Origin: Leucoraja erinacea
Taxonomy: Eukaryota
DNA: 64,000 bases
Direction: 5' to 3'
Assembly: GCF_028641065.1 (NCBI RefSeq)
Contig: NC_073383.1
Span: 2,108,001 to 2,172,000 of the forward strand
In this document: piece after piece, positions 3,150-39,711 of the stretch
Numbering within the stretch: the first letter of the stretch is position 1
How the letters are laid out: each line of letters opens with the position of its first letter
Translations under genes and position numbers: made by a program
The notes under the pieces: model-generated
The model's database searches: none
What the model saw: only the letters and a program-made list of their open reading frames with translations
Told to the model about the DNA's origin: nothing

Positions 3150-4111
3150 AAACCGGCCTCGACTAAAAATAGGTTGCCGTTTTGTCGAAGCCAGTGGAGT
3201 GGGGTTGCTATTTACTTACAGGCAGTCGAAGGCAATCTCCTTCGCTGACTGGCCATTTTGATTGGATAATTGGAGTTTTCAGCAAAGATCCTTTGGGTCT
3301 TTGGGTTTCAGGACCTAGAAGATCCGCCAGAAGGTAAAATGCCCGCTAACTTTATTAAACTTCTTAAAACTGTCTCCACTCCTTCTCCCACCCCCCTTCT
3401 CTCCCTTTCTCTCCCCCTTCTCTCCCCTTTTCCTCCCCTTCTCTCTCCCCTTCTCTCTCCCCTTCTCTCTCCCCTTCTCTCTCTTCTCTCTCCCCTTCTC
3501 TCTCGCCTTCTCTCTCCCCTTCTCTCTCCCCTTCTCTCCCCCTTCTCTGTTCTGTTCTCCTCCTTCTCTCTCCCCTTCTCTTCCCCTTCTCTCTCCCCTC
3601 TCTCCTTCTCTTCCTCTCTCCCCTTCTCTCCCTCCCTCCCGCGCTCTCTAAAGGACTTACCGTGCTCTGTGGCAGCCGTTTACCTTCCTCTTCATCACGC
3701 AGACAGTGCTCCTCCACTGTCCATGGCNNNNNNNNNNNNNNNNNNNNNNNNNNNNNNNNNNNNNNNNNNNNNNNNNNNNNNNNNNNNNNNNNNNNNNNNN
3801 NNNNNNNNNNNNNNNNNNNNNNNNNNNNNNNNNNNNNNNNNNNNNNNNNNNNNNNNNNNNNNNNNNNNNNNNNNNNNNNNNNNNNNNNNNNNNNNNNNNN
3901 NNNNNNNNNNNNNNNNNNNNNNNNNNNNNNNNNNNNNNNNNNNNNNNNNNNNNNNNCCTATAGGACTTTTGGTCAGTAGATGCAGCTCATGCTTCAGTCG
4001 AGGCTTTCCAGGCAAGTGACCAAAACCTCTGGAGACTCATGGAAACTTTGGGTAGGGGGCACAAGGTCACCAGACGTTTCCGTTCAGGTTTCCTAAGTGG
4101 GACAGGGGCAT
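3150..4111. mobile_element. Partial PIF/Harbinger-like MITE with internal CT-rich tract and gap
   Basis: Right end GTGGGACAGGGGCAT (4097-4111) matches the TIRs of the MITEs at 58751 and 59613. No left TIR was found. Confidence 0.5.
3380..3650. repeat. CT-rich low-complexity tract (CCCCTTCTCTCT-like units)
   Basis: Pure polypyrimidine run that produces the spurious SPLL/EREG ORFs. Confidence 0.9.
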
Positions 4112-6895: not shown

Positions 6896-8164
6896 AATTT
6901 GAAGGTCAGCTGCTCGCCCACCAGCTGTGAGTGAGCTGCCGGTACATCAGGTTTGAGTGACTGAGCTGTCACCCCAAGAACCATTTGGCCCACAATGTCC
7001 ATACTAGCCCTCTGGAAACCAGTCCCTTCAGCCCTCAATACCCATACTAGTGCTCCAGAAAGCCCCCACCCCCACTGGCCACAAATATTGGAATTGGTGG
7101 AGAGGTGGAATATTGCATTGGAGGACCATCCCTCCCATGTGAACATGGGACCCAACGGNNNNNNNNNNNNNNNNNNNNNNNNNNNNNNNNNNNNNNNNNN
7201 NNNNNNNNNNNNNNNNNNNNNNNNNNNNNNNNNNNNNNNNNNNNNNNNNNNNNNNNNNNNNNNNNNNNNNNNNNNNNNNNNNNNNNNNNGTTTCCAAAAT
7301 CTCTTATTTCAAACAAGAAATCCAACGGTATCTACAGCAAGTACGCAAGTATTGTATAGTCATTTATTAACAGAATACGCATTCATGGGTTGAGTGTATC
7401 TACTTCCTTTGATAAGAACACAAGAAAGTAGAAGCAGGTCGAGGCCATGTTACTTACCATTCAATATGATTGTGGTTGATCTGATCCTGGCCATGTCATA
7501 CTCTGTGCCAAGTCCGTAACGCTCAGAATTTCCCAATCTACCAAACGTTAGACCTCCTCATCTTTAAATAGCTACAACTCTATGGATTTGAGATCTCCAG
7601 GGAGTCACCACCCTTGGCAAGACAAGACATTTCTGACATAACATTACTATGTTTACTAAAGATTAAATCATTCCTGCTATTGATCTTTCTAGTTTCCCGT
7701 CCTCGCCAAAATTCTATAGCACCATATGGTATCACATGGATTTCAATTCAAATCCCACCTTTGACAACTCAGACGCACTCAGGATCACTGGCACTGATTC
7801 AAGCTGGCGTAGGTTTTTTGTTGTATACAAGGGCTCAACTTAAGTGGAATTAGCTATGTTTTGTCAAACGTTATGTGGTTATATTCTTGTGAAGTCACTT
7901 CACGAAATTGTCATAATCACAGAGATCATAAAGTCGAGTCCTCATGATATAAAAATTAGAAATGAATTTCACGAGTGAGGCCACAGAATTACCACAACAA
8001 CACAAGGACAAAGTTTAAGCTTTTACTCATTTAGTATTTTTCAACCTCCCATAAATCATCTCAATGATATCCATTAGCTGGGATCATCTTTGGCAAAACA
8101 ATTGAAATAAGACCCATAGATTATGAATATTGTTCTATTGTGACTTTCTTGGGAACCAAAGCCA

Positions 8165-9047: not shown

Positions 9048-10033
9048 TTAGAAGTCCCTCATGCGCCTGAAAGACCCGATGGAGGAGTTGTATCCGCACC
9101 AGTCATTGTATCTCCTGTACTCCCCGGGTCTCATGAAGTACTGTCGGCCTCTGTAGTTGGGTTGTTCATAGAAGATCCAGTGACCATCCATCACGTGGCA
9201 GGAGTGAATGTCACGGTAACGGAAGCGATCGTAGACGGAGGGACAGTCGTCCATGAATTCCATCGTTTGTCCTCCAAAGTCAGGCCTCTCGTAAATCTTC
9301 ATCCTGTAGTTGCCTCCCTGGTACTGGAATGGAAAGAAGGCAGCTTTAGCCATGATGTTTTAAAGATAGTTTTACCTCTTGTGGAAGGAATGGCTGGAGA
9401 TGGATTATTCACATGTGCAGCAAAGCTGAATCAATTCTTAGATCGGTCATTGACTTCAATGGGAAATAAAATCAGATGCATTTCCATCACTTCACTCGTC
9501 ATCTGACTCAAATAAGTTTCAAATGGCATTGGCGTTGTTTCAAATGACACAAGAGAAAATACGCTCGGTCTTAGGAATCCTGCAATTTACAGCCACCCTG
9601 TGCTGAGCTCCATCTATGGAGCCAAATCATATGCTGAATACAGAAAATTAAATCCCCAGAGAGAAAGAAAACGGAAACTTACATGAGGGTAGCTGCGACA
9701 GGACCTGATGTTGTCGTTGAATCCCATCCAGCGCTGGTAGTCAGGATACTCCCCCCTGTTCAGGACATACTGGTACCCCATGTAGTTTGGTTTCTCGTAC
9801 GCCACCCACCAGTCACTGTCCACACGGATGGAGTTACAGCGGCTGAAGTAAGAGGACAGGTCGGCACAGTCGGTGCTGCACTCATAGTGCCGGCCCTGGA
9901 AGTTCCTGTCCTCGTAGAAGATGATCTGTGGAAAGAAATAGGTTTTTCAGTAAATCATTTCAGAAGCGAGGAATCACACAATGACAAATTCTAATAGTAA
10001 GTAGAAATGCTCAGTTATCTTTACCTTTCCCAT
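9048..10033 (-). CDS. cryg: Gamma-crystallin (gamma-S1-like, elasmobranch type), gene 1; exons 10025-10033, 9683-9925, 9048-9323
   Basis: Spliced product MGK|[53 protein letters not shown]...RSYPH|[29 protein letters not shown]...SFRRMRDF*. Greek-key motifs, GT-AG introns of 99 and 359 nt, 528-nt CDS, AATAAA at 8993-8998 (minus). Confidence 0.95.
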
Positions 10034-14940: not shown

Positions 14941-16376
14941 CATTTTGATCAAATGAATTTGTTCATTAACAGCTGAGTTAATGTGTTCAGGCTTTGCTTA
15001 TATCCCGTTTATTTGAAAAACCTTGGCTTTTAAAGCACCTCGTGGAGGCCAAGTCAATGGATATTTTTAAGACAGAGATGGATAGATTCTTGATTAGTAC
15101 GTGTGTCAGGGGTTATGAGGAGAACACAGGAAAATGGGGTTAAGAGGGAAAGATGGATCAGAGGTAGATCAGCCATGATTGAATGGTGGAGTAGACTTGA
15201 TGGGTTGAATGGCCTAATTCTGCTCCTGTCACATGACCTTATGACCAGAACCTCAGCCAGTGCTTCCATGAGCATTGTAATGAGCAAATTGTTTGCAATG
15301 CTGTTGTCATAGGGCAGTGACATGGCAGAGAGTGCAGGTGTCCCACAGCTACATCAACCCAAGCTCAGCCCCAATGATGTAAATATGGAGTCTGCATCTT
15401 CAACCAGGTAGGTTTATCGTAGTGCTTAGGTTTACACTCACATTCCACAAGTGTTTCCACAAACTTCATGGGTCAAAAAGGTGGCACTGTGACACAGCAG
15501 TAGAGTTGATGCCTCACAGCGACAGAGAACCGGGTTCAATCCTGACTACAGGTGCTGACTGTAGGAATTTGCACAGTTCTCCCTGTGACTGCGTGGGTTT
15601 TCTCTGGGTGCACAGGCTACAAAGGATCAAAGGTTCAAACGTCTGCTTATCGTCACATGTACCAATTAAGGTACAGTAAAACTCGAATTACCATACAGCC
15701 ATGTTAAAAAAAAGCAACACGCAACTACATGTAACTACACATAAACATCCACCACAGCGGATTCCCCACATTCCTCACTGTGATGGAAGGCAACACAGTC
15801 TAATCTTCTTCCCTTTTCATTCTCCCATGGTCGGGGCAGTCGAACCACCCGCACCAGGCGATCGAAGCCTCTGATTGATGTTCCCGCGATCGGGGTGGTC
15901 AAAGTTCCCGAAGTTGGTCTCTAACCAGAGACCGCGAGCTCCATGATGTTAAGTCCTGCAGGCTCCCGCGGTTGATGTTCCCGAAGTCAGTCTACAGCAG
16001 AGGCCACCAACTCCACGATGTTAGGCAGTGCGGACAGATACGATACGGAAATAAATCGCATCTCCTTCGAGGTAAGAGATTAAAAAAAGTTTCCTCCAAC
16101 ACCCCACCCCCATAAAACAAGCTAAAGAACAATAAAACATGCATTTAACACATATTTAAATAAACAACAAAGAAGGAAGAGGCAGCCATTGCTGGCGCCA
16201 CCTGGTGGTGCAGGTTTCTATCATCATTTACTCATCATCATCATCGCAAACTTTTACTTTACTTTAGTCTTTATCTGTAGAGACGCAGGGCGGCAACAGA
16301 CCCTTCAACCCACTGAGTCCGTGACCTCTGTCATTAACACATTTAGACCCATGGATAAGTTCAGTGTGCTTCATAG

Positions 16377-17006
16377 CAAAGATCTTATAGCGGAGCAAGA
16401 TGGCCTTTTCCTACGCAAAACACATGGTACGGTCATGGGCTGATTCATGGGTGATTATAGGACCCATTTTAGCAACCAGCCTCCGCCATCTTGTTCCGCC
16501 ATCTTGTTCCGCCATCTTGCTTCCAGCCAAAGATCGCATCTTTGCTTCCACCTCTGCTCCCGTATCATCGCTTTGGTCTTTGACTTGGGCGGGGAGAGGG
16601 GGGTGCGCGGCCCGGGGCCTAGGTGTGAGAAGGGGTGCGCAGACTGGGGCAGCAGGGTGGCCTAGGGCCTAGGCGGGGAGAAGGGGTGTGCGCGGCCCAG
16701 GGCAGCGGGGAGGCCAGGGGCGTACACGGGGAGAGGGGGGTGCAGGCCCTGGGGCAGCGGGGAGAGAGGAGAGGAGTAGTGCAAGTGGTGTAGTGGTGGT
16801 GCAGGAGGGTTGGGTAGGGCCAGGGGAGGGAGAGAGCAAAAATATCATAGCGGAGCTCCGCTATATGATCTATGGGAGAGAGAGGTGAGGTAAGGGCCGG
16901 GGTGCAGAGAGCATGGGGAGAGATGTGGGGTTGGGGGCTGGTGGGTTAAGGGGACTACAGCATAGGAGGGGGGGACACATTGCAGTGTGGAGGAGGGGAG
17001 GGAGTG

Positions 17007-17059
<53 letters not shown>

Positions 17060-17488
17060 ATTGAATTGATTGGGGTGGGATAGGGCCTAGTGTGTGTGAA
17101 GTTGCGCGGAGGTTTACAATGTTTATTATTTAATGTCCCTTGTCTAGTCTGAAATAAAGTTCATCATTGGATATAAAAATCAGAAGAAATATAATTGTGT
17201 GTGTAATATGATTATATACATTTATATCACATTCATGTATGTGTGTTTATAAACATTTTATTCTTTAACAAGAATTAATAGAATTATTAACTAACAGAAT
17301 TATGAATCTAACCCTATATCACGCACAAAAACTGTTCCCCCGCAATGTTGATTACCCTGCGAGTCGGGTCGGTTCCGGTTACTAAAATGGGTGGGGAAAA
17401 ATGCCCAGGATCCCCTCCGTAGCGTACTACACGTCAGCCCATTGCATTTCGCAGGAGTGGCCTATCTTGCTCCGCTATAGGATCTTTG
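16377..17488. mobile_element. Non-autonomous DNA transposon (P- or hAT-like) with about 30-bp TIRs and 8-bp TSD
   Basis: TIR CAAAGATCYTATAGCGGAGCAAGAT at both ends, TSD CTTCATAG (16369-16376) / CTTCATAA (17489-17496), G-rich interior with a 50-nt poly-G at 17009-17058. Confidence 0.85.
16837..16874. mobile_element. 38-bp TIR-TIR remnant (footprint) with perfect 8-bp TSD
   Basis: GGAGAGAG|CAAAAATATCATAGCGGAG-CTCCGCTATATGATCTATG|GGAGAGAG. Confidence 0.75.
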
Positions 17489-17742
17489 CTTCATAAGGCT
17501 ACTCAGAAGTTTTGAGAGATCAGTCAGAGGCCGACATTTCATCCTAGAAAGAAAACAGGATTAGCTGAAATACCTTCTTAAATACTCCACGTTAGGTGTC
17601 CATTACTACTCTGGATTATTGCATGGAAATTAAATTCAACAAGGTTCTTAATAATCAAGTGAAAGACATTTTTTTTCAACTCACAAATGATTCTACCCAA
17701 TAACATTCGGATTTGTGAGAAGAATTTTGAAGAACTCCATAT

Positions 17743-18832
17743 GGGACGGCACGGTGATGCAGCAGTAGAGTTGCAGCCTCACATCGCTTACAGTGCCAGA
17801 GACCCAGGTTCGATCCCGACTTGCGGAGTTTGTACCTTCTCCATGTGACCATGTGGGTTATTTCCGGGATCTTCGGTTTCCTCCCACACTCCAAAGACAT
17901 ACAGGTTTGTAGGTTAATTGGCTTGGTATAAATGTAAATTGGCCCTAGTATACATAGAAACATAGAAACATAGAAATTAGGTGCAGGAGTAGGCCATTCG
18001 GCCCTTCGAGCCTGCACCGCCATTCAATATGATCAGGGCTGATCATCCAACTCAGTATCCCGTACCTGCTTTCTCTCCATACCCCCTGATCCCCTTAGCC
18101 ACAAGGGCCACATCTAACTCCCTCTTAAATATAGCCAATGAACTGGCCTCAACTACCCTCTGTGGCAGAGAGTTCCAGAGATTCACCACTCTCTGCGTGA
18201 AAAAAGTTATTCTCATCTCGGTTTTTAAAGGATTTCCCCTTTATCCTTAAGCTGTGACCCCTTGTCCTGGACTTCCCTAACAATTCGGGAACAATCTTCC
18301 TGCATCTAGCCTGTCCAACCCCTTAAGAATTTTGTAAGTTTCTATAAGATCCCCTCTCAATCTCCTAAATTCTAGAGAGTATAAACCAAGTCTATCCAGT
18401 CTTTCTTCATAAGACAGTCCTGACATCCCAGGAATCAGTCTGGTGAACCGTCTCTGCACTCCCTCTATGGCAATAATGTCCTTCCTCAGATTTGGAGACC
18501 AAAACTGTACGCAATACTCCAGGTGTGGTCTCACCAAGACCCTGTACAACTGCAGTAGAACCTCTCTGCTCCTATACTCAAATCCTTTTGCAATGAAAGC
18601 TAACATACCATTCGCTTTCTTTACTGCCTGCTGCACCTGCATGCCTACCTTCAATGACTGGTGTACCATGACACCCAGGTCTCGCTGCATCTCCCCCTTT
18701 CCCAATCGGCCACCATTTAGATAATATAGTATAGTGTAGGATAGTGTTAGTGTGCGAGGATCGCTGGTCGGTGCGGACTCGATGGGCCGAAGGGCCTGTT
18801 TCTGTGCTGTATCTCTAAACTAAACTTAACTA
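17743..18832 (+). mobile_element. tRNA-derived SINE (V-SINE/HE1-like) interrupted by CR1
   Basis: A-box and B-box (GGTTCGATCCC) head with a (TAAAC)n tail. The uninterrupted copy is at 29980-30296. Confidence 0.8.
17953..18726 (-). mobile_element. Young 5'-truncated CR1 insertion with 7-bp TSD TAGTATA
   Basis: TSD at 17946-17952 and 18727-18733. Nearly identical to the CR1 at 29-800, and copy B shows the empty site at about 30185. Confidence 0.92.
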
Positions 18833-18834
18833 AA

Positions 18835-19128
18835 AATGTGGCTGTAAAACCCAGTGGTGGAGTTGCAGCCATCCCAGTCACTGTATCCCCTATATTTTTC
18901 AGGTCTCTGGAAGTGCTGAGAGCTTCTGTCGATGGGCTGCTCATAGAAGATCTAGACATCATCCATCACCATCAGTAGTAGTGTCACAAGAGCGGAAATG
19001 ATCATAAACTGAGAGGGACAGTAGTCCTCGCACTCCACCATTTCCCCTCCAAAGTCAGACAACTTGGTTATCCTTCCCCTGTGATTCTCCCAGGCTTGTA
19101 GACTCCTTAGATAGCTCCTACAAAATTT
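18835..19128 (-). pseudogene. Degenerate gamma-crystallin pseudogene (exon-3-like), copy A
   Basis: Reads NHRGRITKLSDFGGEMVECEDYCPS/VYDHFRSCD../VMDDV*IFYEQPIDRSSQHFQRPEKYRGYSDWDGCNSTTG, colinear with exon 3 of the intact genes. Contains frameshifts and a TAG at the Trp position (18952-18954). Confidence 0.85.
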
Positions 19129-20759
19129 ATGACCTTTAGGCCAAGGGTGTCGAAGACATAGGAACACCATCAACTGCAAGTGGTCCTCCAAGGGTTACCC
19201 CATCTTGACGCAGTCTGAAGAAGGGTCATGGCCAGAAACGTCACCCATTCCTTCGCTCCAGAGATGCTGCCTCAACCCAGCTTTTTGTGTTCTTCTTTGA
19301 CTTGGAAATCTATCCACAATTCTTCCCCATCACTGGGTCAATGTCCTGGAACTATCTCTCCTAACAACGTTGTGGGTGTACACAGACCTGAAGGGCTGTA
19401 GTGGTTCAAGACAGCTGCTCACCACCACCACCTCAAAGGCAATTCACTATGGGCAATCATTGCTGACAGCCTATAAGCCCGCACCTCTAGAATGGAAAAT
19501 TAATTGTAGCTATCAAGGTCCAGATAATGCACTTGTAGGTTCCTAACAAGCTGTGTGTTTTTTTTTTATCATTCCCACTTGTGGGGCCTTGATCACCCCC
19601 ACCAATGTCACTCTTCCTTAATCTTTCTTGGCTTCATCGAAACTCATTTACTTTTTTGATTAAAAGATAAATTACTGGAAGAACTGAGCAGGTCAAGCAG
19701 GATATAAACGCAAAAAGCTGGAGTAAATCAGCGGGCCAGGCAGCATCTCTGGAGACAAGAAATGGAGACCCTTCTTCAGGCTGAGAGTCAGGGGAAAGGC
19801 AAACGAGAGATAGAGACGGTGATATTGAGTGATATAGATCAAGTGAATGAAAGATACAGAATGCGATAAAAGTAATGATGATAAAGGCCATTGTTAGCTG
19901 TGTGCCAGGAAACGTGTACAGACAATGAGACTCAACAAGATGACTTTGAAGCTGGTATGACGATTGGGGGGGGGGGGGAGGGTAGAGAGAGAGGAGAGAT
20001 GCGCAGGTTATTTGAAGTTAGAGAAATTGATATTCAAGCAGGTTGTACAGAGGCAAAGGGATAGTCAATATTTCTGAGACTTTGCAACAGATGAGGAGAT
20101 ATTCAGCCCATCAAGTCTATTTGGCCCATCAAGTCTCTGCTATTCAATCATGGTTGATCTATCTCTCCCTCCTAACCCCATTCTCCTGCCTTCTCCCCAT
20201 AACCCCTGACACTCGCACTAATCAAATGGGTCAAGCGAATTCAAATAGGATTAGCCTATCTCAGGCTAATAACAATGGCCTTATTCTGGAGCTTTAGTCT
20301 TTATTCTAGAAGTTTATCTCAAGCATTGATTAAAGAATGGAACATATGTATTCAGGCAGTGAAGAAAGCTAATGGAATGTTGGCCTTCATAACAAGAGGA
20401 TTTCAGTATAAGTGTAAAGAGGTTCTTCTGCAGTTGTATAGATACATAGATACATAGAACATAGGTGCATGAGTAGACCATTCGGCCCTTCGAGCCTGCA
20501 CCGCCATTCAATATGATGATGGCTGATCATCCAACTCAGTATCCCGTACCTGCCTTCTCTCCATACCCCCTAATCCCTTTAGCCACAAGGGCCTCATCTA
20601 TAGGGCTCTGGTAAGACCACATCTGGAGTATTGTGTGCAGTTTTAGCCTCCAAATTTGAGGAAGGGCATCCTTGTGATTGAGGCAGGGCAGCGTAGGTTC
20701 AGGAGATTGATCCCTGGGATGGCGGGACTGCCATATGAGGAAAGATTGAAAAGAATAAT

Positions 20760-22345
20760 GAATCGCATTTTCAAATGAGGGGCTTTTCGAAATCATAAGG
20801 TAAACCTCTGCCGGAATATGTAAAAAAATCACTGTTACCGCGTCGGGTTTTCGAGGATCAGATGTGAATCACATGTGAAAACACACACACACACACACGC
20901 ACGCACAGACACACACATCCAAGATCAGCGTTTTAATAGTTACTAGACCAAGTGCAGACCCGTTGGGTCTGCTCCCCCAACACAGCCGTTCCCTACCCGT
21001 AGCCTCCACGAGAGGCGTGGTCCTCCGACTTAAGCAGCTCAGGAATCAGCAGTGCGGCTGTTTTTAAATGGCGTCTTTGAGGTGAGATGCGGGCGCCAGC
21101 AGCCATTATGGTCGAGGCAGGAGGCGACAAAATGAGTGAGTGAGGTGGGGGGGGGGGGGGGGGGGGGAGAAGAATTTTATTAAAAATGTGTACATAAACA
21201 CGACAAAATTTAATGAGGAGTGGATACTTGGAATGAAACGTGAAATCTCTACCGAAATGGAAAAAATCAGGGCGTTTGTGGGTCGAGTGTTGGCGTGGCA
21301 ACTAATCAAAGGCTGGCAACCACGTCAGAAACACACACAGCCACATAGCGAGACACACACAGAGTTTTATATATATACCACACCAAGTGCAGACCCGTTG
21401 GGTCTGCTCCCCCAAAGGTGTGATCTCCCAACCCAATATTCCACCATGCACCCGTCTCCTCAAATGGAACTGAAGCCGTTCTGAAAAGTAAGATTCCAGC
21501 ACTGCCCTGACTCCCTCAGCAGTGGATTAAAAAAAAAATCCAATGGCACCTCCCTGCCTGCTGCAGCAGTGAAAAGTTCAGAGTGTTCCTGTCTTGCAAC
21601 TTTGTTTCGAAGTGTGTTGGAAGCTGACATGTAAATGGAGAAGCCAGTTTATTTTTGAAATACTTGGGGGTGCGGGTGGGAGAAGGATTTGATTAAAAAC
21701 GTGTACTTCAACACAACAAAATGTAATGAGGAGCGGATACTTAGAAAGAAAAGCGAAATCTCTACCAAAATGGAAAAGATCTCGGAGATTGAGCGTCTGG
21801 ATTGGGCGTGGCAATGAATCAAAAGAAGAAATGCAGCCGGCAGCCGTACATGCAAATGGATCCATTCCGATTGGACATCTGTGAGCATCGGCCATTCCGA
21901 TTGGACATCTGCGAGTATCGGGCACGAATCAAAAGGCAGAAAGGGATCCGGACGGCAACCGGACGGATAGCCCCAGAGTTTTATAGATATAGTAGACCAA
22001 GTGCAGACCCGTTGGGTCTGCTCCCCCAATGGTGTGATTCCCCCAACCCAATATTCCACCATGCACCCGTCTCCTCCAACGGAACTGAAGCTGATCCCAA
22101 ATGTAAGATTCCAGCACTCCCCTGCCTCCCTCAATTGCACCTCCCCTGCCTGCTGCAGCAGTGAAAAGTCCAGTGTTCCTGTCTTGCAACTTTGTTTCGA
22201 AGTGTGTTGGAAGCTGATAGGAAGGAGCAGTCGTCAACGAATCAAAAGGCAGGAAGGGATCCGTACTGCAGGCGGACGGATGGATTTGAGTTTTATATAT
22301 TAATAGATAGATAGATATAGATAGATAGATATAGATAGATAGATA
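20760..22345 (-). mobile_element. Head-to-tail array of non-autonomous Helitron units, copy A
   Basis: On the minus strand the 3' end GCAGACCC-AAC-GGGTCTGC-ACTTGGT-CTAG occurs at 20943, about 21378 and about 21992 (the last two with a mutated CTAG). Each is joined to a TA-rich ...ATAAAACTC 5' end. Confidence 0.7.
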
Positions 22346-22444
22346 TGGTGAAAATAAATGAATTATTTAGACAATTGTCTTGAAAAGGGTATTTTATTTT
22401 CTGAAGTATTTCATCAGAATAATATTGTGCATATTGAGAGTAAT

Positions 22445-24556
22445 CTAGAAGTCCCTCATGCGCCTGAAAGACCCGATGGTGGAGTTGTATCCGCCCCAGT
22501 CATTGTATCTCCTGTACTCCCCGGGTCTCATGAAGTACTGTCGGCCTCTGTAGTTGGCTTGTTCATAGAAGATCCAGTAACCATCCATCACGTGGCAGGA
22601 GTGAATGTCACGGTAACGGAAACGATCATAGACGGAGGGACAGTCGTCCATGAATTCCATCGTCTGTCCTCCAAAGTCAGGCCTCTCGTAAATCTTCATC
22701 CTGTAGTTTCCACCTCGGTACTGGAATAAAGGATATAAACATGTCAAAGGTGCCTACATTAATAAAGAGATTATACCAAGCAAGTTGTAGCAAGCCTCAG
22801 TAATGATCAATTATAAATTACATTTCCAATCTAGCGTTAATGAAGTCAAAGGAGCAAAGTGTATTTCTAGGAAAGAACTGCAGATGCTGGTTTAAATAGA
22901 CGCAAAATGTTGGAGTAACTCAACGGGACAGGCAGCATCTCTGGAGAGAAGGATGGGTGACGTTTTGGGTTGAGATTGTTAGTGGAAGCATTGAAGACTG
23001 AGAGTCAGGGGAGTGGGCGGGACAGAGATAAAATGTAGCAAGGAATCATCTCCGATGGTAAGTCCCGCGGTGGGGCTCCAAGTCAGTCCCGAGGAAGGGA
23101 TCTGGGATCCATCTCCACGATGTTAGGCCGCAGAGCGACCGGAGATACGATCGAACGATAACATTTGAAATAAATGTTTCCCCTGCCCGCCCATCCCCCA
23201 CATAAAACAAACCATAGAACATTTAAAACAAACTAAAAATAACAAAAAACAGACGAAAAGGCAGACAGACCTTTGGCGAGGCTGCCATCTAAGCTCACCT
23301 GGTGTTTACCTGTACGTCTTTGGAGTGAGGGAAGAAACCAAAGCTCTCAGAGAAAACACATGCAGGTCAGGCGGAGAATGAACAAACTCTGTACAGACAA
23401 GCACTGGTAGTCAGGATCAACCCCAGGTCTCTGGCGCTGTCAGGCAGCAACTCGACCGCTCCACTAAGTTATGCCAATCTTTTAACATTAACCAAATTCT
23501 GCAGATATTCACGAAGGAAGCCATTCATCCTGTTGAGTCCTTCCCAGAACATCCTTCACTGCCCAATTCCATTTCCCTGCTCTCTGTGTTTTAAGTGCTC
23601 ATTTGAATGCAGTGAGAAAGCTTCTGTCGCTATCTCTGTCACAAAGGCAGTCACAAGGGCGCCAAGTTGCAGCGCCAGAGATCCGAGTTCGATCCCAACT
23701 GCAGGTTCACCCCGTGACTAGCGTGTGCTTTCTCCGTGATCTTCAGTTTCCTCCCACGCTCCAAAGACGTGCTTGTTTGTAGGTTAATTGGCTTGGCAAT
23801 TGGAAAAATTGTCCCTAGAGTGTGTTAGTGTGTAGACCCGCGCTGTATCTCAAAGCTAAACTAAAGTCTCAAACCTCCACTGTAGATAGATGACAAGTAT
23901 TTCCTCAGTACTCGTTCAATGCTTCCAATAGCCATCTTTACCCAAACCCCTCACAACCAAAGAAACAGGCCCACTAGAATCACCTGTATCAGATTCACCA
24001 CCTACCTACGCTAATCTCACAGCCTTTAACAGCCAAACATCCACTGACGCTGAAAATGTAAGCAATTAAATCTAGTTAACAATTGTTATCAGCATAACAA
24101 ATTGGACAAAGAGAAACATTTCCCTAAAGATTGCTGGCAAGTCCAGTTCTAGCAAATGCTGGTGAAGTGGGAGCACTGTTTCAAGTGGCCTGCAACAATG
24201 ATCATACACTGGAACTCACATGTGGGTAGCTGCGACAGGACCTGATGTTGTCGTTGAATCCCATCCAGCGCTGGTAGTCAGGATACTCCCCCCTGTTCAG
24301 GACATACTGGTACCCCATGTAGTTGGGTTTCTCGTACGCCACCCACCAGTCACTCTCCACACGGATGGAGTTACAGCGGCTGAAGTAAGGGGACAGGTCG
24401 GCACAGTCGGTGCTGCACTCATAGTGCCGACCCTGGAAGTTCCTGTCCTCGTAGAAGATGATCTGTGGAGAGAAATAAATAGTTTGGGTCAGATTAGGAG
24501 GCGCACAATGTTTAAAGTGTACTTCCCCAAATCAGATTTAATCTTGCCTTTCCCAT
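22445..24556 (-). CDS. cryg: Gamma-crystallin gene 2; exons 24548-24556, 24220-24462, 22445-22720
   Basis: Same 9/243/276 exon layout, open frame ending RRMRDF-TAG. Intron 1 (85 nt) has an AAG|GCAAGA donor and intron 2 is 1499 nt. TATATAAA at 24610-24617 and AATAAA at 22393-22398. Confidence 0.93.
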
Positions 24557-24609
24557 TTTAGTTCACAGTCAACACCAATCTGTGGTCTACCTGTAGCTAC
24601 AACTTGCCC

Positions 24610-24617
24610 TTTATATA
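24610..24617 (-). promoter_or_regulatory. TATA box of gene 2
   Basis: TATATAAA about 55 nt upstream of the ATG at 24556. Confidence 0.75.
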
Positions 24618-26459
24618 TTGGTCCGGAAGGCTTTTCCAGAAATGTGTTTGTAATGTAAATGATTCAGAACACAGAGACAGCAGAAAAAGAACAACATACA
24701 AACCATGAATGCTGAAAAGGCACCTGAGAGTATCTGATGCGTCAATTATCTTTTTAAAAAAAATTGCAGCCACGTCATTTTAAATAAGCTTTTATCTTTT
24801 GAACACTTGAATCATTTTAGATTTTCAATAAAAAAGGCACTGTGCGGAGATGTGTCATATGTTCATAGAAGATCAGCACGGAAAGTGGCCCTTCAGCCCA
24901 TCATGTCCATACTGGCCATCAATCACTCCTTTTCACTAAACCTGCATTTATCTCATGTTATTGTGAAGATAGACAGGAAATGCTGTAGTAACTCAGCGGG
25001 TCAGGCAGTATCGCTGGATAGAAGGAATGGGTGACGTTTCGGGTCGTGACCCTTCTTCTATTCATTGTTCCGAGATACTCATCAACTCCCCCACATTCTA
25101 CAACTCCCTACACATAAAGGACAATATATAGTGGCCAATTAACCGACCAACCCGCATGTCTTTTGGACATGAAAGGAAACTGGAGAACTTGGAGAAAACA
25201 TATGCGGGAAGGAGGGAGAGCGTGCAATCTACTTACATGTCCTTAAAATCTACTTACCAGTATGTAGGTAAAGTGTGAGGTGGTGGGATTTATCGGCGAG
25301 ATCTTCCAAAGAGCTCGCAGAACATGAGGGCCTCCCATGTAGACTGGAGGCATCTTTGATATAATCCAGTTATTCCTGACCATGGAAATTTAGACCTCTC
25401 AACAAATACACATCAGTAAGGCTCAAAATGCTGGAGTAACTTAGGTAGCATTTCCGGAGAGAAGGAATATGTGACATTTCGGGTCGAGACCCTTCTTCAG
25501 ACTGTCCCGCTGAGTTACTCGGCATTTTGTGTCGATCTCCACTGAGCAGAACCCTGGCTGAGCCTTCAATGCAGTGCAGAGGGAGGTTGTACAGTACGAT
25601 ACGTTACGACATGATATGATAGGTTTATTCCAGGAGGGAAATTGATCTACCAACAGTCATAAAAACACAAAAACGCAAGAGACATGATACGTAAAATTAA
25701 AGTGACTAGTGGAAAGGATTGGGGATGTGCAAAGATTGGGGGGGGGGGGGGGGGGAGGTGCCCCGCGACGTGGACTCTTCTGCTATGGGGCCACTGCATC
25801 TCTGGAGAAAAGGAATAGGTGACGTTTTGGGTTGAGGCCCTTCTTCAGATTCCTTTTCTCCAGAGATACTGTGTGACCCGCTGAGTTACTCCAGCTTTCT
25901 GTGTCTATCTTCAGTTTGAACCAGCATCTGCAGTTCCTTCCTAAACATCTGGGACAAAACAGTATCCTCGATTAGCATCCCATGACCAACATTGTGTATA
26001 TAATCATGAGAGGAATAGAGCGGGTAGATGCACAGATTCTCTAGCCCAGAGTAGGTGAATCGAGAACCAGAGGACATAGGTTTAAGGTGAAGGGGAAAAG
26101 ATTTAATAGGAATCTGAGGTGTCATTTGTTTCGCACAAAGGGTGATGGGTGTATGGAACAAGCTGCCAGAGGAGGTAGTTGAGGCTGGGAGAGAAGAAAC
26201 GTTTAAGAAACAGTTAGACAGATACATGGATAGGACAGGTTTGGAAGGAGATGCAGGCAGTCGGAACAAGTGTAGACAATAGACAATAGGTGCAGGAGTA
26301 GGTCATTCAGCCCTTTGTGATCATGGCTGATCATCCCCAATCAGTGCCCCATTCCTGCCTTCTCCCCATATCCCCTGACTCCGCTATCTTTAAGAGCCCT
26401 ATCTAGCTCTCTCTTGAAACCATCCTGAGGGAGAAAATTCCACACTCACAACTTTCTGT

Positions 26460-27496
26460 AGGTATGTTACAAAGCCTACCTGAAGCGTCGCTGAAAATCT
26501 GGCGCTGCGGGTGTGCGCGATTTTGGCGCCGTTTAGAGGGGGCGGGTTTAAAACGTGATTTTCACTAGGCTGTTCCAATCGAAGATGTTCAGCCTAGTAA
26601 ATCATTAGCGAAAAATCGCTGAAAGACCCCGTCGCAAAAGGTATTATTAGTTTTTATAGCCTTGTTTAATAGTTATAATAGTTTAAAAATCACTCTCTAA
26701 ACCCGCGACCTCACGCAACCACAGGGCCGCATGGAGCTGTCTACAGAAGGTATGTAGCTTATTTTTACATTAAATGGGGCTTCTTAAGAACCCTTTATAC
26801 AAAGTTTACTATTGCGAGTAGCTAATTTTGGGTTCTTTATATCCCGCAGTATTTTTCTGGGCATTTGAGGCACAAATCCACTGCAATGTGAACGTTCTGA
26901 ACCAGCGCGTTCACAGGATCCCACTGGAAAGCTGATTTAAAATGGACTTTAATTTACAGCAATTGAACACTAAATTCCTTCCATTTGGCCTATAAATTAA
27001 TGTAAATGAGATTTAAAAATCATGTTTTATTGTGACTTATTTATGAATATTATTTGGATACTTAGGATATTTAAAAACGTTAATCATTTATTAAGAAATG
27101 GATAGATGTTTAGATCTAGTAATTGAAGTTTGAAATTAGTTACACTTGGGTAACTAACTAATTATATGCTTTAATTTCAGGTCATCCAAGTAAAATTATT
27201 TTATATTTGTTTCAGAATGGTTTAACCTATGATAACTGAAAATTTCATTCAGTTCTCTTAATTTTTAAGAAGGTTATGGGCTTTTGACTGCACACGATCA
27301 CAGCTTTTTTGTTATGTCCATAGAAAATCAATAGGGAACAAGATGCTTATTTCCGAGTATGAAAATGGCCATAACTTTTTAAATACCTGAGATATGAAAG
27401 TGAATTATGTGTCAAATTAAACTTCTTTTTATGCTTTATCTGATGGGATAAATTACAGACTTGATTTTTTAAATCTCAAAATTTTGTAACATTGCT
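26460..27496. mobile_element. MITE of 1037 bp with 14-bp imperfect TIRs and flanking ACTTTCTGT direct repeat, copy A
   Basis: AGGTATGTTACAAA ... TTTGTAACATTGCT, with ACTTTCTGT at 26451-26459 and 27497-27505. Inserted in a CR1 3' fragment. Confidence 0.85.
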
Positions 27497-28363
27497 ACTT
27501 TCTGTGTGAAAAAATGGCCATTGGCTTCTTTATAATGCCACTGACCAAAATGTGCAGGCCCCTGGGGAAGCAGCCATCAGCATTTTCTCCACCAAGTCTC
27601 ATATAGTGATGGCTTCAATTTAAATTGTGCATCTTTCACCCTGGCTCAACCAAACTCCTGGGTCCTTACAAGCAACACCCATGTGAACACCTCCCAACAG
27701 CCATGGTAGCGCAGTGGTAGAGCTGCTGCTTTACACCACTTGCAGCGCCAGAGACCTAGGTTCCATCCCGACTACGGGTGCTGTCTGAATGGTGTTTGTT
27801 CGTTAGGTGAAAAAGTGTTTCCTCATCTCCGTTCTAAATGGCTTACCTCTTATTCTTAAACTGTGACCCCTGATTCTCGACTCCCCCAACATCGGGAACA
27901 TGTTTCCTGCCTCTAGCGTGTCCAAAGCCTTAATAATCATATATTTCAATCAGATCCCGTCTCATCCTTCTAAACTCCAGAATATAATTACAAGTGTGTA
28001 ATGTCTGCAATTTCTTCAACATCAAATAACGTTATGTTCATTATTCTTCTCTCCCTTCTTTAGACGGAATATTTATACCCTTGGCGCACCATTGGTTTGT
28101 GAATGATCGACATGCATGGTAGGTTTGACAGAACCTCCCAAACACACAATCTCTGTCACTAGTGGCAGAGGCATCAGATACATGGGGACTCCACCAATTC
28201 CATGCTTCCATCCAAGTCATGTGTTGGAAATTATATCAGTGCTCCCTCTAAGTCAATGGGTCTAAATCCAGGAACTCTCTACTCTACAAGATTGTGGAAG
28301 TATGATCACCACAGCAGCTGCAATGGTTAAAGATGGGGCATACTATAAGCTCAAGGACAAAGA

Positions 28364-28662
28364 CCGACATGGTGGTGCAGCGGTAGAGTTGCTGCCTTAC
28401 AGCGCTTACAGCACCAGAGAACCGGGTTCAATCCCGACTATGGGTGCTGTCTTTACATTGTTTGTACGTTCTCCCCGTGACCAGTGTGGGTTTTCTCTGG
28501 GAGCTTCGGTTTCCTACCACAGTCCAACGACATACAGGGTTTGTAGGTCAATTGGCTTGGCGTAAGTGTAAATTGTTCCTAATGTGTGTGCAGGATAGTG
28601 TTAGTGTGCGGGTGCAGAGTCAGTGGGCCCAAGGGCCTGTATTTCTAAACTAAACTAAACTA
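28364..28662 (+). mobile_element. tRNA-derived SINE
   Basis: TGGTGCAGCGGTAGAG A-box, GGTTCAATCCC B-box and (TAAAC)n tail. Confidence 0.8.
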
Positions 28663-28814
28663 GTGATGGGCAAGAAAAACTGTTCTTGCTGACAAGCATG
28701 GAAGAAAAACATTCAGCTGTGAACAGAGAGGAGGAAATGGATCCAATTTGTCCAGGATCTGTCCAGGATCTGAAGAAGGGTTTCGGCCCGAAACGTTGCC
28801 TATTTCCTTCGCTC

Positions 28815-29685
28815 AATACAATACCATACAATACCATTTATTTGTCATTTGAACCTCACATGAGGTTCAAACAAAATTTGTTTTCTGCAGCCATACAAGA
28901 AAAGAACCAAGACACACACCAACACAATGAAGAACCAAGACACAACACAATTTACATGAACATCTATCACAGTGAATCTCCTCCTCACTGTGATGGAAGG
29001 CAAAGTCTTATCTCTCCCCTGCACTCCTTGTTCTCCTCCCGATGTCAGAGTCAAAGCCCCCGGCGGGCGATGGTAAATAAGTCCCGCGGCAATTATAAAG
29101 CCGCGCCAGGTGATGCAAGGCCGCGCTCCGGGTCTTGGTGTTAGAGCCCCCGGCGTGCGCTAACAAGTCCCGCGGCAATTATAAAGCCTCGCCAGGCGAT
29201 GTAAGGCCCCGTTCCAGGTCATCCTCAACCCCACAACTCGGGTGGGAGAAGTCGCCGTTGCGGAAGCCCCGAAAAGCAGTCTCCCAGCAGGGACCCGCGG
29301 GCTCCCGGTGTTACTGTCCACCAGACCTGCGTTAAGCCTCCGAATCTCCGGGGTTGGGCCGCAGCAGCTTGCCACCACCACTCCACCCGCTCCGAACTGG
29401 GCCAGCTCCACGATGGTGGGTAAGTCCGCAGGCTCCGCGACTGGAGCCCCAGGTGGTTCCGGTTGGAGGCCGCTCCACGGTGCTCGGCCCCAACGACAAT
29501 GGAGACCCGACAGGGAAAAGGTCGGGTTCTCCGTGTAGGGGAAAGATTTTTAAGAGTTCTCCCCCCCCCCCGCCCCCCACACACATACCCAGTTTAAAAA
29601 AAAAAAAAATTACATACAACGAGACGAAAAAAAAACGACAGACGGACTGCAGAGGCCGCTGCGACGTGAGTCGCACCGCCCACCC
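28815..29685 (-). mobile_element. Unclassified GC-rich non-autonomous retroelement (about 870 bp)
   Basis: Related copies at 15630-16210, 39865-40765, 52660-53415 and 53600-54240. Ends TGACAAATAAA plus a short tandem tail. Confidence 0.6.
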
Positions 29686-29979
29686 AGACCCACCCACTCC
29701 ATAGATGCTGCCGCACCCGCTGAGTTTCTCCAGCTTTTTTGTGTACTTGTCCAGGATTAAACCCGTTTGAAACAAGTGCAGTTTAAGAAGCCATTCTTTA
29801 ATGTCAACATTAAGAAGGTTCCCTGTTTGTTGGTTAAGAAGCAATTTTAACTTGTATTGGATTATTGCATGGAAATTAAATTCAACAAGGTTCTTAATAA
29901 TCAAGTGAAAGACATTTTTTTTCAACTCACAAATGATAACATTTAGGATTTGTGAGGAGAATTTTGAAGAACTCCATAT

Positions 29980-30296
29980 GGGACGGCACGGTGATGCAGC
30001 AGTAGAGTTGCAGCCTCACAGCGCTTACAGTGCCAGAGACCCAGGTTCGATCCCGACCTGCGGAGTTTGTACGTTCTCCATGTGACCATGTGGGTTATTT
30101 CCGGGATCTTCGGTTTCCTCCCACACTCCACAAAGACATACAGGTTTGTAGGTTAATTGGCTTGGTATAAATGTAAATTGGCCCTAGTATAGTGTAGGAT
30201 AGTGTTAGTGTGCGAGGATCGCTGGTCGGTGCGGACTCGATGGGCCGAAGGGCCTGTTTCTGTGCTGTATCTCTAAACTAAACTAAACTTAACTAA
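29980..30296 (+). mobile_element. tRNA-derived SINE (empty-site copy)
   Basis: Same SINE as 17743-18832 without the CR1. Confidence 0.8.
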
Positions 30297-30297
30297 A

Positions 30298-30591
30298 AAT
30301 GTGTCTGTAAAACCCAGTGGTGGAGTTGCAGCCATCCCAGTCACTGTATCCCCTATATTTTTCAGGTCTCTGGAAGTGCTGAGAGCTTCTGTCGATGGGC
30401 TGCTCATAGAAGATCTAGACATCATCCATCACCAACAGTAGTAGTGTCACAAGAGCGGAAATGATCATAAACTGAGAGGGACAGTAGTCCTCGCATTCCA
30501 CCATTTTCCCTCCAAAGTCAGACAACTTGGTCATCCTTCCCCTGTGATTCTCCCAGGCTTGTAGACTCCTTAGATATCTCCTTCAAAATTT
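30298..30591 (-). pseudogene. Degenerate gamma-crystallin pseudogene, copy B
   Basis: Near-identical duplicate of 18835-19128 inside the second segmental copy. Confidence 0.85.
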
Positions 30592-32214
30592 ATGACCTTT
30601 AGGCCAAGGGTGTCGAAGACATAGGAACACCATCAACTGCAAGTGGTCCTCCAAGGGTTACCCCATCTTGACGCAGTCTGAAGAAGGGTCATGGCCCGAA
30701 ACGTCACCCATTCCTTCGCTCCAGAGATGCTGCCTCAACCCAGCTTTTTGTGTTCTTCTTTGACTTGGAAATCTATCCACAATTCTTCCCCATCACTGGG
30801 TCAATGTCCTGGAACTATCTCTCCTAACAACGTTGTGGGTGTACACAGACCTAAAGGGCTGTAGTGGTTCAAGACAGCTGCTCACCACCACCATCTCAAA
30901 GGCAATTCAATATGGGCAATCATTGATGACAGCCTATAAGCCCACACCTCTAGAATGGAAAAAATAATTGTAGCTATCAAGGTCCAGGTAATGCACTTGT
31001 AGGTTCCTAACAAGCTGTGTGTTTCTTTATCATTCCCACTTGTGGGGCCTTGATCACCACCACCAATGTCACTCTTCCTTGATCTTTCTTGGCTTCATCG
31101 AAACTCATTTACTTTTTTGATTAAAAGATAAATTACTGGAAGAACTGAGCTGGTCAAGCAGGAGATAAATGCAAAAAGCTGGAGTAAATCAGCGGGCCAG
31201 GCAGCATCTCTGGAGACAAGGAATGGAGACCCTTCTTCAGGCTGAGAGTCAGGGGAAAGGCAAACGAGAGATAGACGGTGATATTGAGTGATATAGATCA
31301 AATGAATGAAAGATACAGAATGCGATAAAAGTAATTATGATAAAGGCCATTGTTAGCTGTGTACCAGGAAACGTGTACAGACAATGAGACTCAACAAGGT
31401 GACTGAAGCTGGTACGACGATTGGGGAGGGGGGGTAGAGAGAGAGGAGAGATGCGCGGGTTATTTGAAGTTAGAGAAATCGATATTCAAGCAGGATGTAC
31501 AGAGGCAAAGGGATAGTCAATATTTCTGAGACTTTGCAACAGATGAGGAGATATTCAGCCCATCAAGTCTATTTGGCACATCAAGTCTCCGCCATTCAAC
31601 CATGGCTGATCCATTTCTCCCTCCTAACCCCATTCTCCTGCCTTCTCCCCATAACCCCTGACACCCGCACTAATCAAATGGGTCAAGCGAAAGCAAATAG
31701 GATTAGCCTATCTCAGGCTAATAACAATGGCCTTATTCTGGGGCTTTAGTCTTTATTCTAGAAATTTATCTCAGGCATTGATTAAAGAATGGAACATATG
31801 TATTCAGGCAGTGAAGAAAGCTAATGGAATGTTGGCCTTCATAACAAGAGGATTTCAGTATAAGTGTAAAGAGGTCCTTCTGCAGTTGTATAGATACATA
31901 GAACATAGGTGCAGGAGTAGACCATTCGGCCCTTCGAGCCTGCACCGCCATTCAATATGATGATGGCTGATCATCCAACTCAGTATCCCGTACCTGCCTT
32001 CTCTCCATACCCCCTAATCCTTTTAGCCACAAGGGCCTCATCTATAGGGCTTTGGTAAGACCACATCTGGAGTATTGTGTGCAGTTTTAGCCTCCTAATT
32101 TGAGGAAGGGCATCCTTGTGATTGAGGCAGGGCAGCGTAGGTTCACGTGATTGATCTCTGGGATGGCGGGACTGCCATATGAGGAAAGATTGAAAAGAAT
32201 AATGAATCATATTT

Positions 32215-33348
32215 TCAAATGAGGGGCTTTTCGAAATCATAAGGTAAACCTCTACCGGAATATGTAAAAAAATCACTGTTACCGCGTCGGGTTTTCGAGG
32301 AGATGTGAATCACATGTGAAAACACACACACACACACACACGCACGCACGCACACACACACACACACATCCAAGATCAGCGTTTTAATAGTTACTAGACC
32401 AAGTGCAGACCCGTTGGGTCTGCTCCCCCAATGCAGCCATTCCCTACCCATAGCCCCCACGGGAGGCATGGTCCTCCAACTCAAGCAGCTCAGGAATCAG
32501 CAGTTCGGCTGTTTTTAAATGGCATCTTTGAGGCGAGAAGCGGGCGCCAGCAGCCATTATGGTCGCTGGCCAGCAGGAGGCGTCAAAATGAGTGAGTGGG
32601 GGGGGGAGAAGAATGTTATTAAAAATGTGTACATAAACACGACAAAATTTAATGAGTGGATACTTGGAATGAAATGTGAAATCTCTACCGAAATGGAAAA
32701 AATCAGGGCGTTTGTGGGTCGAGTGTTGGCGTGGCAACGAATCAAAGGCTGGCAGGCACGTCAGAAACACACACAGCCACGTAGCCAGACACACACACAG
32801 TTTTATATATATACTAGACCAAGTGCAGACCCGTTGGGTCTGCTCCCCCAATGGTGTGATCCCCCAACCCAATATTCCGCCATGCACCCGTCTCCTCCAT
32901 TGGAACTGAGCCCGTTCCCAAATGTAAGATTGCAGCCCTCCCCTGCCTGCTGCAGCAGTGAAAAGTTCAGTGTTCCTCTCTTGCAACTTTGTTTCGAAGT
33001 GTGTTGGAAGCTGACATGTAAATGGAGAAGCCTGTTTATTTTTGAAATACTTGGGGGTGGGTGGGAGAAGGATTTGATTAAAAACATGTACTTCAACATG
33101 ACGAAATGAAATGAGGAGCGGATACTTAGAAAGAAAAGCGAAATCTCTACCGAAATGGAAAATATCTCGGAGATTGAGCATCTGGATTGGGCGTGGCAAT
33201 GAATCAAAGGAAGAAATGCAGCCGGCAGCCGTACATGCAAATGAATCCATTCCGATTGGACATCTGCGAGCATCGGCCATTCCGATTGGACATCTGCGAG
33301 TATCGGGCACGAATCGAAAGGCAGGAAGGGATCCGTACTGCAGGCGGA
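32215..33348 (-). mobile_element. Head-to-tail Helitron array, copy B (runs into gap)
   Basis: Intact hairpin-CTAG|T 3' ends at 32394-32397 and 32814-32817. Confidence 0.7.
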
Positions 33349-33574
33349 NNNNNNNNNNNNNNNNNNNNNNNNNNNNNNNNNNNNNNNNNNNNNNNNNNNN
33401 NNNNNNNNNNNNNNNNNNNNNNNNNNNNNNNNNNNNNNNNNNNNNNNNNNNNNNNNNNNNNNNNNNNNNNNNNNNNNNNNNNNNNNNNNNNNNNATTTAG
33501 ACAATTGTCTTGAAAAGGGTATTTTATTTTCAGAAGTATTTCCTCAGAATAATATTGTGCATATTGAGAATAAT

Positions 33575-35611: not shown

Positions 35612-35664
35612 TTTAGTTCACAGTCAACACCAATCTGTGGTCTACCTGTAGCTACAATTTGCCC

Positions 35665-35672
35665 TTTATATA
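35665..35672 (-). promoter_or_regulatory. TATA box of gene 3
   Basis: TATATAAA about 55 nt upstream of the ATG at 35611. Confidence 0.75.
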
Positions 35673-37516: not shown

Positions 37517-38551
37517 AGGTATGTTACAAAGCCTACCTGAAGCGTCGCTGAAAATCTGGCGCTGCGGGTGTGCGCGATTTTGGCGCCGTTTAGAGGGGGC
37601 GGGTTTAAAACGCGATTTTCACTAGGCTGTTCCAATCGAAGATGTTCAGCCTAGTAAATCATTAACGAAAAATCGCTGAAAGACCCCGTCGCAAAAGGTA
37701 TTATTAGTTTTTATGGCCTTGTATAATAGTTATAATAGTTTAAAAATCACTCTCTAAACCCGGGACCACGCAACCACAGGGCCGCATGGAGCTGTATACA
37801 GAAGGTATGTAGCTTATTTTTACATTAAAAAGGGCTTCTCAAGAACCCTTTATACAAAGTTTACTATTGCGAGTAGCTAATTTTGGGTTCTTTATATCCC
37901 ACAATATTTTTCTGGGCATTTGAGGCACAAATCTACTGCAATGTGAACGTTCTAAACCAGCGCGTTCACAGGATCCCACTGGAAAGCTGATTTAAAATGG
38001 ACTTTAATTTACAGCAATTGAACACTAAATTCCTTCCGTTTGGCCTATAAATTAATGTAAATGAGATTTTAAAATCATGTTTTATTGTGAATTATTTATG
38101 AATATTATTTGGACTCTTAGGCTATTTAAAAATGTTAATCATTTATTAAGAAATGGATAGATGTTTAGATCTAGTAATTGAAGTTTGAAATTAGCTACAC
38201 TTGGGTAACTAACTAATTATATGCTTTAATTTCAGGTCATCCAAGTAAAATTATTTTATATTTGTTTCAGAATGGTTCAATCTATGATAACTGAAAATTT
38301 CATTCAGTTCTCTTAATTTTTAAGAAGGTTATGGGCTTTTGACAGCACACGATCACAGCTTTTTTGTTATGTCCATAGAAAATCAATAGGGAACAAGATG
38401 CTAATTTCTGAGTATGAAAATGGCCATAACTTTTTAAATACTTGAGATATGAAAGTGAATTAGGTGTCAAATTAAACTTATTTTTATGCTTTATCTGATG
38501 GGATAAATTACAGACTTGATTTTTTAAATCTCAAAATTTTGTAACATTGCT
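37517..38551. mobile_element. MITE, copy B
   Basis: Same TIRs as 26460-27496, with ACTTTCTGT at 37508-37516 and 38552-38560. Confidence 0.85.
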
Positions 38552-39412: not shown

Positions 39413-39711
39413 CCGACATGGTGGTGCAGCGGTAGAGTTGCTGCCTTACAGCGCTTACAGCACCAGAGAACCGGGTTCAATCCCGACTATGGGTGCTGTC
39501 TGTACTGTGTTTGTACGTTCTCCCCGTGACCAGCGTGAGTTTTCTCTGGGAGCTTCGGTTTCCTACCACAATCCAACGACATACAGGGTTTGTAGGTCAA
39601 TTGGCTTGGCGTAAGTGTAAATTGTTCCTAATGTGTGTGCAGGATAGTGTTAGTGTGCGGGTGCAGAGTCAGTGGGCCCAAGGGCCTGTATTTCTAAACT
39701 AAACTAAACTA
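39413..39711 (+). mobile_element. tRNA-derived SINE
   Basis: Duplicate of 28364-28662. Confidence 0.8.

Follow-up and report, generated by a model that had tools for sequence, protein, structure and literature searches.

The window analyzed here, a 64-kb stretch (64,000 nucleotides) of the Leucoraja erinacea genome, contains a gamma-crystallin cluster with members at 9051-9946, 22448-24531, and 33578-35586 on the minus strand and at 43285-49262 on the plus strand, one member being inverted. One crystallin exon in the window is most identical to sequences from Amblyraja radiata (96%) and Rhinoraja longicauda (94%), which points to a skate-like genome and supports the chondrichthyan origin proposed by an earlier, sequence-only reading of this DNA. 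A tandem duplication of about 11-12 kb (17612-29864 and 29858-40942, 93-98% identity), with gamma-crystallin exons in each unit, begins just right of the transposable element described below. Because the duplication starts at 17612, it offers no empty site for that element. The window also holds a 775-bp stretch present at both 31-800 and 17952-18726 (96% identical), which overlaps a reverse-transcriptase frame (LINE fragment), and assembly gaps (N runs) at 3728-3956, 7159-7289, and 33349-33494, one of them within the tandem duplication.

The element of interest, referred to as the host, has the TIRs, the TSD, the many interspersed copies, and the lack of coding capacity by which a MITE is recognized. 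The host TIR pair extends for about 44 nt with 82% identity. No Pfam domains were found in its two frames of at least 95 aa, and an Rfam search gave 0 matches. An uninterrupted run of 50 Gs is located at 17009-17058 within the host. The features of the host and of a second, nested element are collected in Table 1.

Table 1. Coordinates of the host MITE and the nested remnant within the window.
Feature	Position	Strand	Remarks
Host element, left TSD	16369..16376	+	7/8 identical to 17489-17496; lengths 2-12 tried, 8 alone fits
Host non-autonomous TIR element, MITE-like	16377..17488	.	1112 bp; high-copy family
Host left TIR	16377..16418	+	near-perfect for 25 nt, imperfect beyond
GCGGAGC mini-hairpin motif, TIR nt 14-20	16390..16396	+	predicted to fold when single-stranded
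Left subterminal inverted repeat	16462..16477	+	from nt 86 of left end; 15/16 complementary to 17377-17392
13-bp tandem motif	16482..16529	+	3.5 copies
G-rich 53-bp degenerate tandem repeat	16615..16764	+	subfamily interior
Nested remnant, left TSD	16829..16836	+	8-mer identical to 16875-16882
Left stub, TIR nt 1-20	16837..16856	+	17/20 vs host left TIR
Shared GC dinucleotide, TIR nt 19-20	16855..16856	.	2-nt microhomology
Right stub, TIR nt 1-20 inverted	16855..16874	-	18/20 vs either host TIR
Nested remnant, right TSD	16875..16882	+	8-mer identical to 16829-16836
Right subterminal inverted repeat	17377..17392	-	from nt 97 of right end; pairs with 16462-16477
Host right TIR	17447..17488	-	inverted pair with left TIR
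Host element, right TSD	17489..17496	+	7/8 vs 16369-16376

Inside the host, a 38-bp core of fused TIR ends (16837-16874) is bracketed by two identical 8-bp repeats. An exact duplication around the core exists at a length of 8 only (lengths 4-15 tried). Compared with the host left TIR, the two core arms agree at 17/20 and 18/20 positions, and compared with the right one at 16/20 and 18/20; at every other site in the 64 kb, the host TIRs excepted, the TIR 20-mer has at least 6 mismatches. The sequence and coordinates of the TIR-to-TIR remnant with a perfect 8-bp TSD are as first reported. Its origin by insertion into a MITE of the same family is supported, as is a true 8-bp TSD. The core junction reads 18+(GC)+18. 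Splits of 18+20, 19+19, and 20+18 fit equally because GC (TIR nt 19-20) is common to both arms, and so of the two 19-nt halves joined at GAGCTC that were originally described, the fused TIR ends stand and the 19+19 division is arbitrary, being one of three equal splits. The GAGCTC palindrome results from the fusion of inverted arms, and the true microhomology is 2 nt.

Could low-complexity 8-mers next to an accidental palindrome have produced this arrangement? The TSD 8-mer is GA-rich and occurs three times in the host interior, the third time at 16761; among non-overlapping 8-mer pairs of the G-rich interior, 66 of 64,620 match. Against this, adjacent identical 8-mer pairs are found at 0 of 358 positions in the G-rich interior, a second-order Markov null gives 4.9e-4 for the 8-mer duplication, and the arms fit the TIR as described above and fit it better still in other copies. 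Low-complexity chance, raised as a concern for the TSD in the earlier reading, is thus unlikely. We regard a chance origin of the whole arrangement as extremely improbable, and for the arms it is already refuted. A scan of the window for an 8-bp repeat with inverted arms returned 14 matches, namely the remnant, 11 simple-repeat sites, and 2 weak others; the same scan on 15 Markov-shuffled windows returned 1. No further remnant copies were found within the 64-kb window, and exact 9-mer matches at 26379 and 37436 were dismissed as copies, having no TIR context. Folding of the 54-mer (TSD-core-TSD) was weak (z -1.85) and was not counted as evidence. The right stub begins CATAG (window position 16872), unlike the CAAAG of the host, and no variant at this position is among the 40 variant rows listed of 127. 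Given this start, the nested element may derive from a related subfamily, a sister of the host's.

To place the remnant in its family, contigs from 4 of 24 public sequencing runs (X1, X19, X20, and X2; one each from organisms A, C, D, and B) were compared with window positions 16300-17005. Summed contig depth, which is not copy number and is usable for order of magnitude alone, climbs about 1000-fold at the bin that includes 16377, reaching about 9,000-57,000 after values in the tens, and loose ends before 16377 (agreement 0.46-0.53) are present in 3 of the 4 runs (X1, X20, and X2). Together, the depth jump and the loose ends indicate that 16377 is the true edge of a high-copy family. Depth in the host interior is one to two orders below that of the end bin.

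In 4/4 runs, 10-17 contigs per site hold the host-left-TIR letter, unlike the window, at four core sites. With the runs in the order given above (X19 second, X2 fourth), the TIR letter makes up 687/687, 1606/1650, 2926/2945, and 610/610 of the depth at 16841 (11, 17, 15, and 15 contigs); 668/687, 1628/2201, 2945/2945, and 587/610 at 16844; 687/687, 1641/2201, 2945/2945, and 598/610 at 16846; and 850/910, 1141/1772, 3111/3271, and 500/663 at 16866. The share is lower in X19 at the last three sites, and also in X2 at 16866. At the three left-stub mismatches and at 16866 of the right stub, the TIR letter is thus in the majority of contig depth, and the core mismatches of the window itself look like later decay. 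Three of the contigs listed join the core to host flank at 87-90% identity: X19 record 15 (16759-16870, gap-free) and X20 record 32 (16690-16871) cross the left boundary with at least 31 letters on each side, and X19 record 16 (16847-16990) extends over the right boundary by 28 letters. As we read the contig-end distances, the entire 54 bp are probably covered by a single contig in X20 and another in X1.

Because the core recurs in other contigs, within the same flanks and with TIR letters, it has been inherited along with a MITE subfamily, and the scarred subfamily likely comprises tens of copies. Since the stub is inherited with a multi-copy subfamily whose flanks are common to the copies, the skate copies represent one event. 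The remnant is not a locus-specific scar but likely one old nested insertion that collapsed once and was then copied with the MITE subfamily. Joints that skip the core, as expected of empty sites, are absent among the 15 joints listed of 22.

The contig data also bear on whether the 38-bp palindrome could be a very small transposable element in its own right, one that inserted as such and made the TSD. Such an element would resemble Made1, a miniaturized derivative of Hsmar1 (PMC3814204, in part), and the core does have both termini and an 8-bp TSD. In X1, its depth (572-910) exceeds that of the adjacent flank bins (256 and 224). In X2, however, core depth (899-1018) is under that of both flanks (2334 and 1952), and there are no loose ends at the core boundaries among the 24 listed of 368. 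The core also lacks subterminal repeats, whereas Drosophila P needs 138 and 216 bp of its ends and Anopheles P-MITEs keep about 100 bp (passages of PMC1562414). Made1/Hsmar1 and similar MITEs miniaturized at microhomologies share with the remnant the loss of the interior, with little but ends left, but they belong to the Tc1/mariner family, have microhomologies of 6-8 bp, and are mobile as a family, whereas the core has a 2-nt overlap and is seen only as a passenger (PMC3814204, in part). On balance, we consider a mobile mini-element very improbable. TIR-to-TIR miniaturization is thus known outside P, in the case of Made1 (same source).

A search for the 20-nt TIR motif in a metagenome collection yielded one exact match, in contig L001. 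At 2962-2994 of this contig, a 33-bp fusion joins TIR nt 1-20, without a difference from the host right TIR, to inverted nt 15-1, which carry one mismatch. As in the skate, the arms share GC and the fusion extends to nt 20. The skate copies (one event) and L001 (one further) are the independent fusion events seen. The L001 fusion has no direct TSD, and an 8-mer located 3 nt further on matches at 7/8 positions, which occurs by chance at 11 of 2961 positions (empirical, post hoc). The 3 nt that follow the fusion reverse-complement the 3 nt that precede it, consistent with snap-back synthesis starting at a 3' end located at nt 20. Because the contig carries other small hairpin elements, the fusion may instead be a hairpin MITE. 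These are a 111-bp near-perfect palindrome with 55-nt arms (774-884) and a 42-bp hairpin with 19-nt arms (1581-1622), and are possibly other MITEs or remnants. L001 is a single locus, and short remnants would be expected to assemble more readily than full copies.

The contig is AT-rich and has a frame with a weak Ig-domain match (E 3e-4, below the Pfam cut-off), and it looks like animal, apparently invertebrate, DNA. The first 20 nt of the skate TIR, the GCGGAGC motif included, are unaltered in it, suggesting a widespread family or horizontal transfer. The 20-nt motif had 0 matches in viral contigs. Shorter motifs gave 51 matches in GTDB, where a second arm within 2 mismatches was present in 0/51, and 24 and 120 matches in viral sequences (the 120 from 7/64 parts), where the best 20-mer match had 3 mismatches in each set; all were taken as chance. 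All three TSDs (16369-16376 and 16829-16836 in the window, 2954-2961 in L001) terminate in AG, and in X1 and X20, 9-10 contigs have loose ends at 16370 instead of 16377. The shared AG and the displaced loose ends hint at a target-sequence preference.

The closest parallel to the remnant is provided by P element donor sites. The 3' tails that P excision produces in Rad51-mutant Drosophila are 17 nt long, and among 68 junctions, 14 read 14+(AT)+14 and 5 read 15+(TA)+15, both being symmetric, short-microhomology joins between 8-bp TSDs (Chan, Yu, McVey 2010, PMC2895639); asymmetric variants occur too. The order TSD, TIR stub, 2-nt self-complementary microhomology, inverted stub, TSD is common to these junctions and the remnant, and the true 8-bp TSD together with this anatomy agrees with Tables 1-3 of that paper. 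The differences concern length and setting. The Drosophila tails of 17 nt give scars of 30 and 32 bp, whereas the skate remnant is 38 bp and requires nt 20; in addition, the skate scar occurs in nature, lies nested inside a MITE, and has been amplified. Tables 1-3 of PMC2895639 contain no P stub longer than 17 nt. On the skate TIR, 17-nt tails would permit symmetric joins at 2-nt microhomologies of only 12-30 bp. The arms of the remnant extend to nt 18-20 and its 38 bp exceed 34 (17+17), placing its stubs beyond 17 nt. Because this limit is exceeded despite the matching anatomy, the remnant is not classed as a Drosophila-type P footprint. A model of 17 nt, 4 inserted nt, and 17 nt was rejected since the supposed insert is an exact continuation of both TIRs (1 in 256). 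Fold-back of one end was also rejected for the window core: in a direct-repeat setting, its arms are not alike at nt 3, and the product expected from hairpin snap-back is 33 bp rather than 38. The proposal that the scar records a Drosophila-like 17-nt cut is thus not supported as stated, the join needing tails to TIR nt 20. Of the broader proposal of a fossil of P chemistry, the anatomy is supported; the chemistry is not supported as stated, given the nt-20 tails, the single event, the lack of an empty site among the 15 of 22 joints listed, the lack of a transposase, and the miniaturization known outside P.

Our preferred reading, held with about even confidence, is that the remnant is a P-like long-tail excision footprint with predicted 3' tails of about 20 nt. 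A family member would have landed within the G-rich interior of an ancestral copy of the MITE, and P-like excision would then have left TIR top-strand tails on both donor flanks. Annealing of these tails at GC would give 20+20-2=38, the Drosophila analogue being 17+17-2=32. The scarred MITE, which would have kept its outer ends, could then have been amplified to a subfamily of likely tens of copies, with the scar likely an inert passenger. Tails of about 20 nt are favored because 3 of the 4 stubs in the two events can end at nt 20. In hAT excision the hairpins are on the flanking DNA, and in mariner excision the tails measure 2-3 nt (PMC3878927, passages cited), so that neither leaves TIR stubs directly. 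The original contention that hAT excision leaves no long TIR stubs accordingly holds for direct excision, but stubs are conceivable via gap repair. Excision by zfTHAP9 in S2 cells produced larger flanking deletions (PMC10983969, in part), and vertebrate P footprints are therefore not established in the literature examined.

GCGNAGC with N=G forms a mini-hairpin that has a Tm of 73 °C and resists 3' exonuclease, and GCGGAGC is the motif of the phage N4 promoter hairpin (portions of PMC13037366). ViennaRNA leaves GCGGAGC (TIR nt 14-20) unfolded; standard parameters cannot account for GCGNAGC mini-hairpins, according to the same source. Because the nuclease-resistant motif ends exactly at nt 20, the hairpin could fix stub length under any cleavage chemistry. 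A narrower version of the preferred reading, in which a P-like TIR family has a stagger of about 20 nt and the donor tail is capped by the GCGGAGC mini-hairpin at its broken end, is a tentative and rather unlikely proposal.

The same hairpin is central to the main alternative, namely aborted gap repair after any cut-and-paste transposase (hAT, or P with a 17-nt stagger), in which the ends copy TIR from the sister chromatid, are trimmed to the hairpin at nt 20, and are joined at GC. In wild-type flies, aborted synthesis and end joining account for most donor repair (PMC2895639, in part), and stub length therefore need not equal stagger. Abortive repair with microhomology has also been invoked for Ac, P, Tc1, Mutator, and the birth of MITEs (PMC3814204, in part). 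The exonuclease-resistant hairpin ends precisely where the stubs do, and the reverse-complementary 3-nt flanks of L001 fit snap-back synthesis from it. This alternative nevertheless requires synthesis and trimming to the identical base on both sides, and the GC would lie sequestered in the hairpin stem. Aborted gap repair, moreover, typically keeps long, unequal tracts on the kilobase scale. We view it as possible but somewhat unlikely; under it, stub length would record the hairpin and not the cut.

A deletion independent of transposase, in which the nested TIRs pair as a stem during replication and the loop is lost by slippage at GC, was considered as well. Nearly-precise excision of Tn10 is an analogue. 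The TIRs are complementary over about 44 nt, and palindromic dinucleotides behave as direct repeats across an inverted pair. The homology is only 2 nt, though, and the spacer was probably long; there are nine palindromic dinucleotides in the first 30 nt, yet both remnants extend to nt 20. Slippage thus appears improbable, and P-like excision with long tails remains the reading we prefer.

Which superfamily the host and nested element belong to was approached through their ends. The termini begin CAAAG (host) and CATAG (right stub), the host having CA..TG ends, and CANRG is the terminal motif of the P superfamily. The TSDs are 8 bp long, with identity of 7/8 in the host and 8/8 in the remnant, a length that is not diagnostic of P because it is common to hAT. 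No transposase domains were found in the window among 113 frames (27 of at least 150 aa and 86 of 95-149 aa), and no transposase linked to the TIR was found outside it, L001, the sole family locus found elsewhere, being a remnant. The 16-bp subterminal inverted repeats lie at nt 86 and nt 97 from their respective ends, so that their offsets differ by 11 nt; the binding-site spacing of Drosophila P is 9 vs 21 (PMC7776569, excerpt).

hAT insertions follow the target rule NTNNNNAN (PMC3878927, in part). Both the host TSD and the one inferred for L001 conform to NTNNNNAN, and the remnant TSD fits at position 7 only. The family is like hAT MITEs in the 8-bp TSD, in 2/3 TSDs fitting the rule, and in the CA..TG ends, and unlike them in that direct hAT excision, with its hairpins on the flanking DNA, leaves TIR stubs behind in neither flank (same source). 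Anopheles AgaP-MITEs (PMC1562414), Drosophila BuT5 (PMC3698922), and zebrafish Pdre (PMC10983969) are, like the host, described in the passages cited as non-coding TIR elements with an 8-bp TSD. BuT5, at about 1 kb, is near the host in size, and Pdre2, BuT5, and P have subterminal inverted repeats as the host does. The P-MITEs and Pdre, unlike the skate family, are tied to THAP transposases, and the cited portions of PMC1562414, PMC3698922, and PMC10983969 do not mention an internal TIR-TIR scar. The host therefore resembles P-MITEs and Pdre in TSD, termini, and subterminal repeats, features that overlap with those of hAT. In a literature search, none of the 10 papers listed of 11 with the TIR motifs was on transposons, and there was nothing on a skate or chondrichthyan P superfamily; Repbase and Dfam lay outside this search, and the family may already be catalogued there.

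Taken together, the feature is a real nested TIR-fusion scar in a MITE, an excision or gap-repair remnant amplified from one event. Today, it serves as a subfamily marker and a lead, not as proof of P chemistry. In the portions of the literature examined, a 17-nt stagger is described for Drosophila P transposase only, and the zebrafish enzyme is without mapped cut sites. Provided that tail length is recorded in natural scars, counting TSD-flanked TIR fusions across whole genomes would yield the stagger of P-like families in vertebrates and invertebrates alike, and orphan MITEs could be sorted as P or hAT without a transposase. Should a stagger of about 20 nt prove true, genomic scars would reveal the cleavage stagger of P families that have never been purified.
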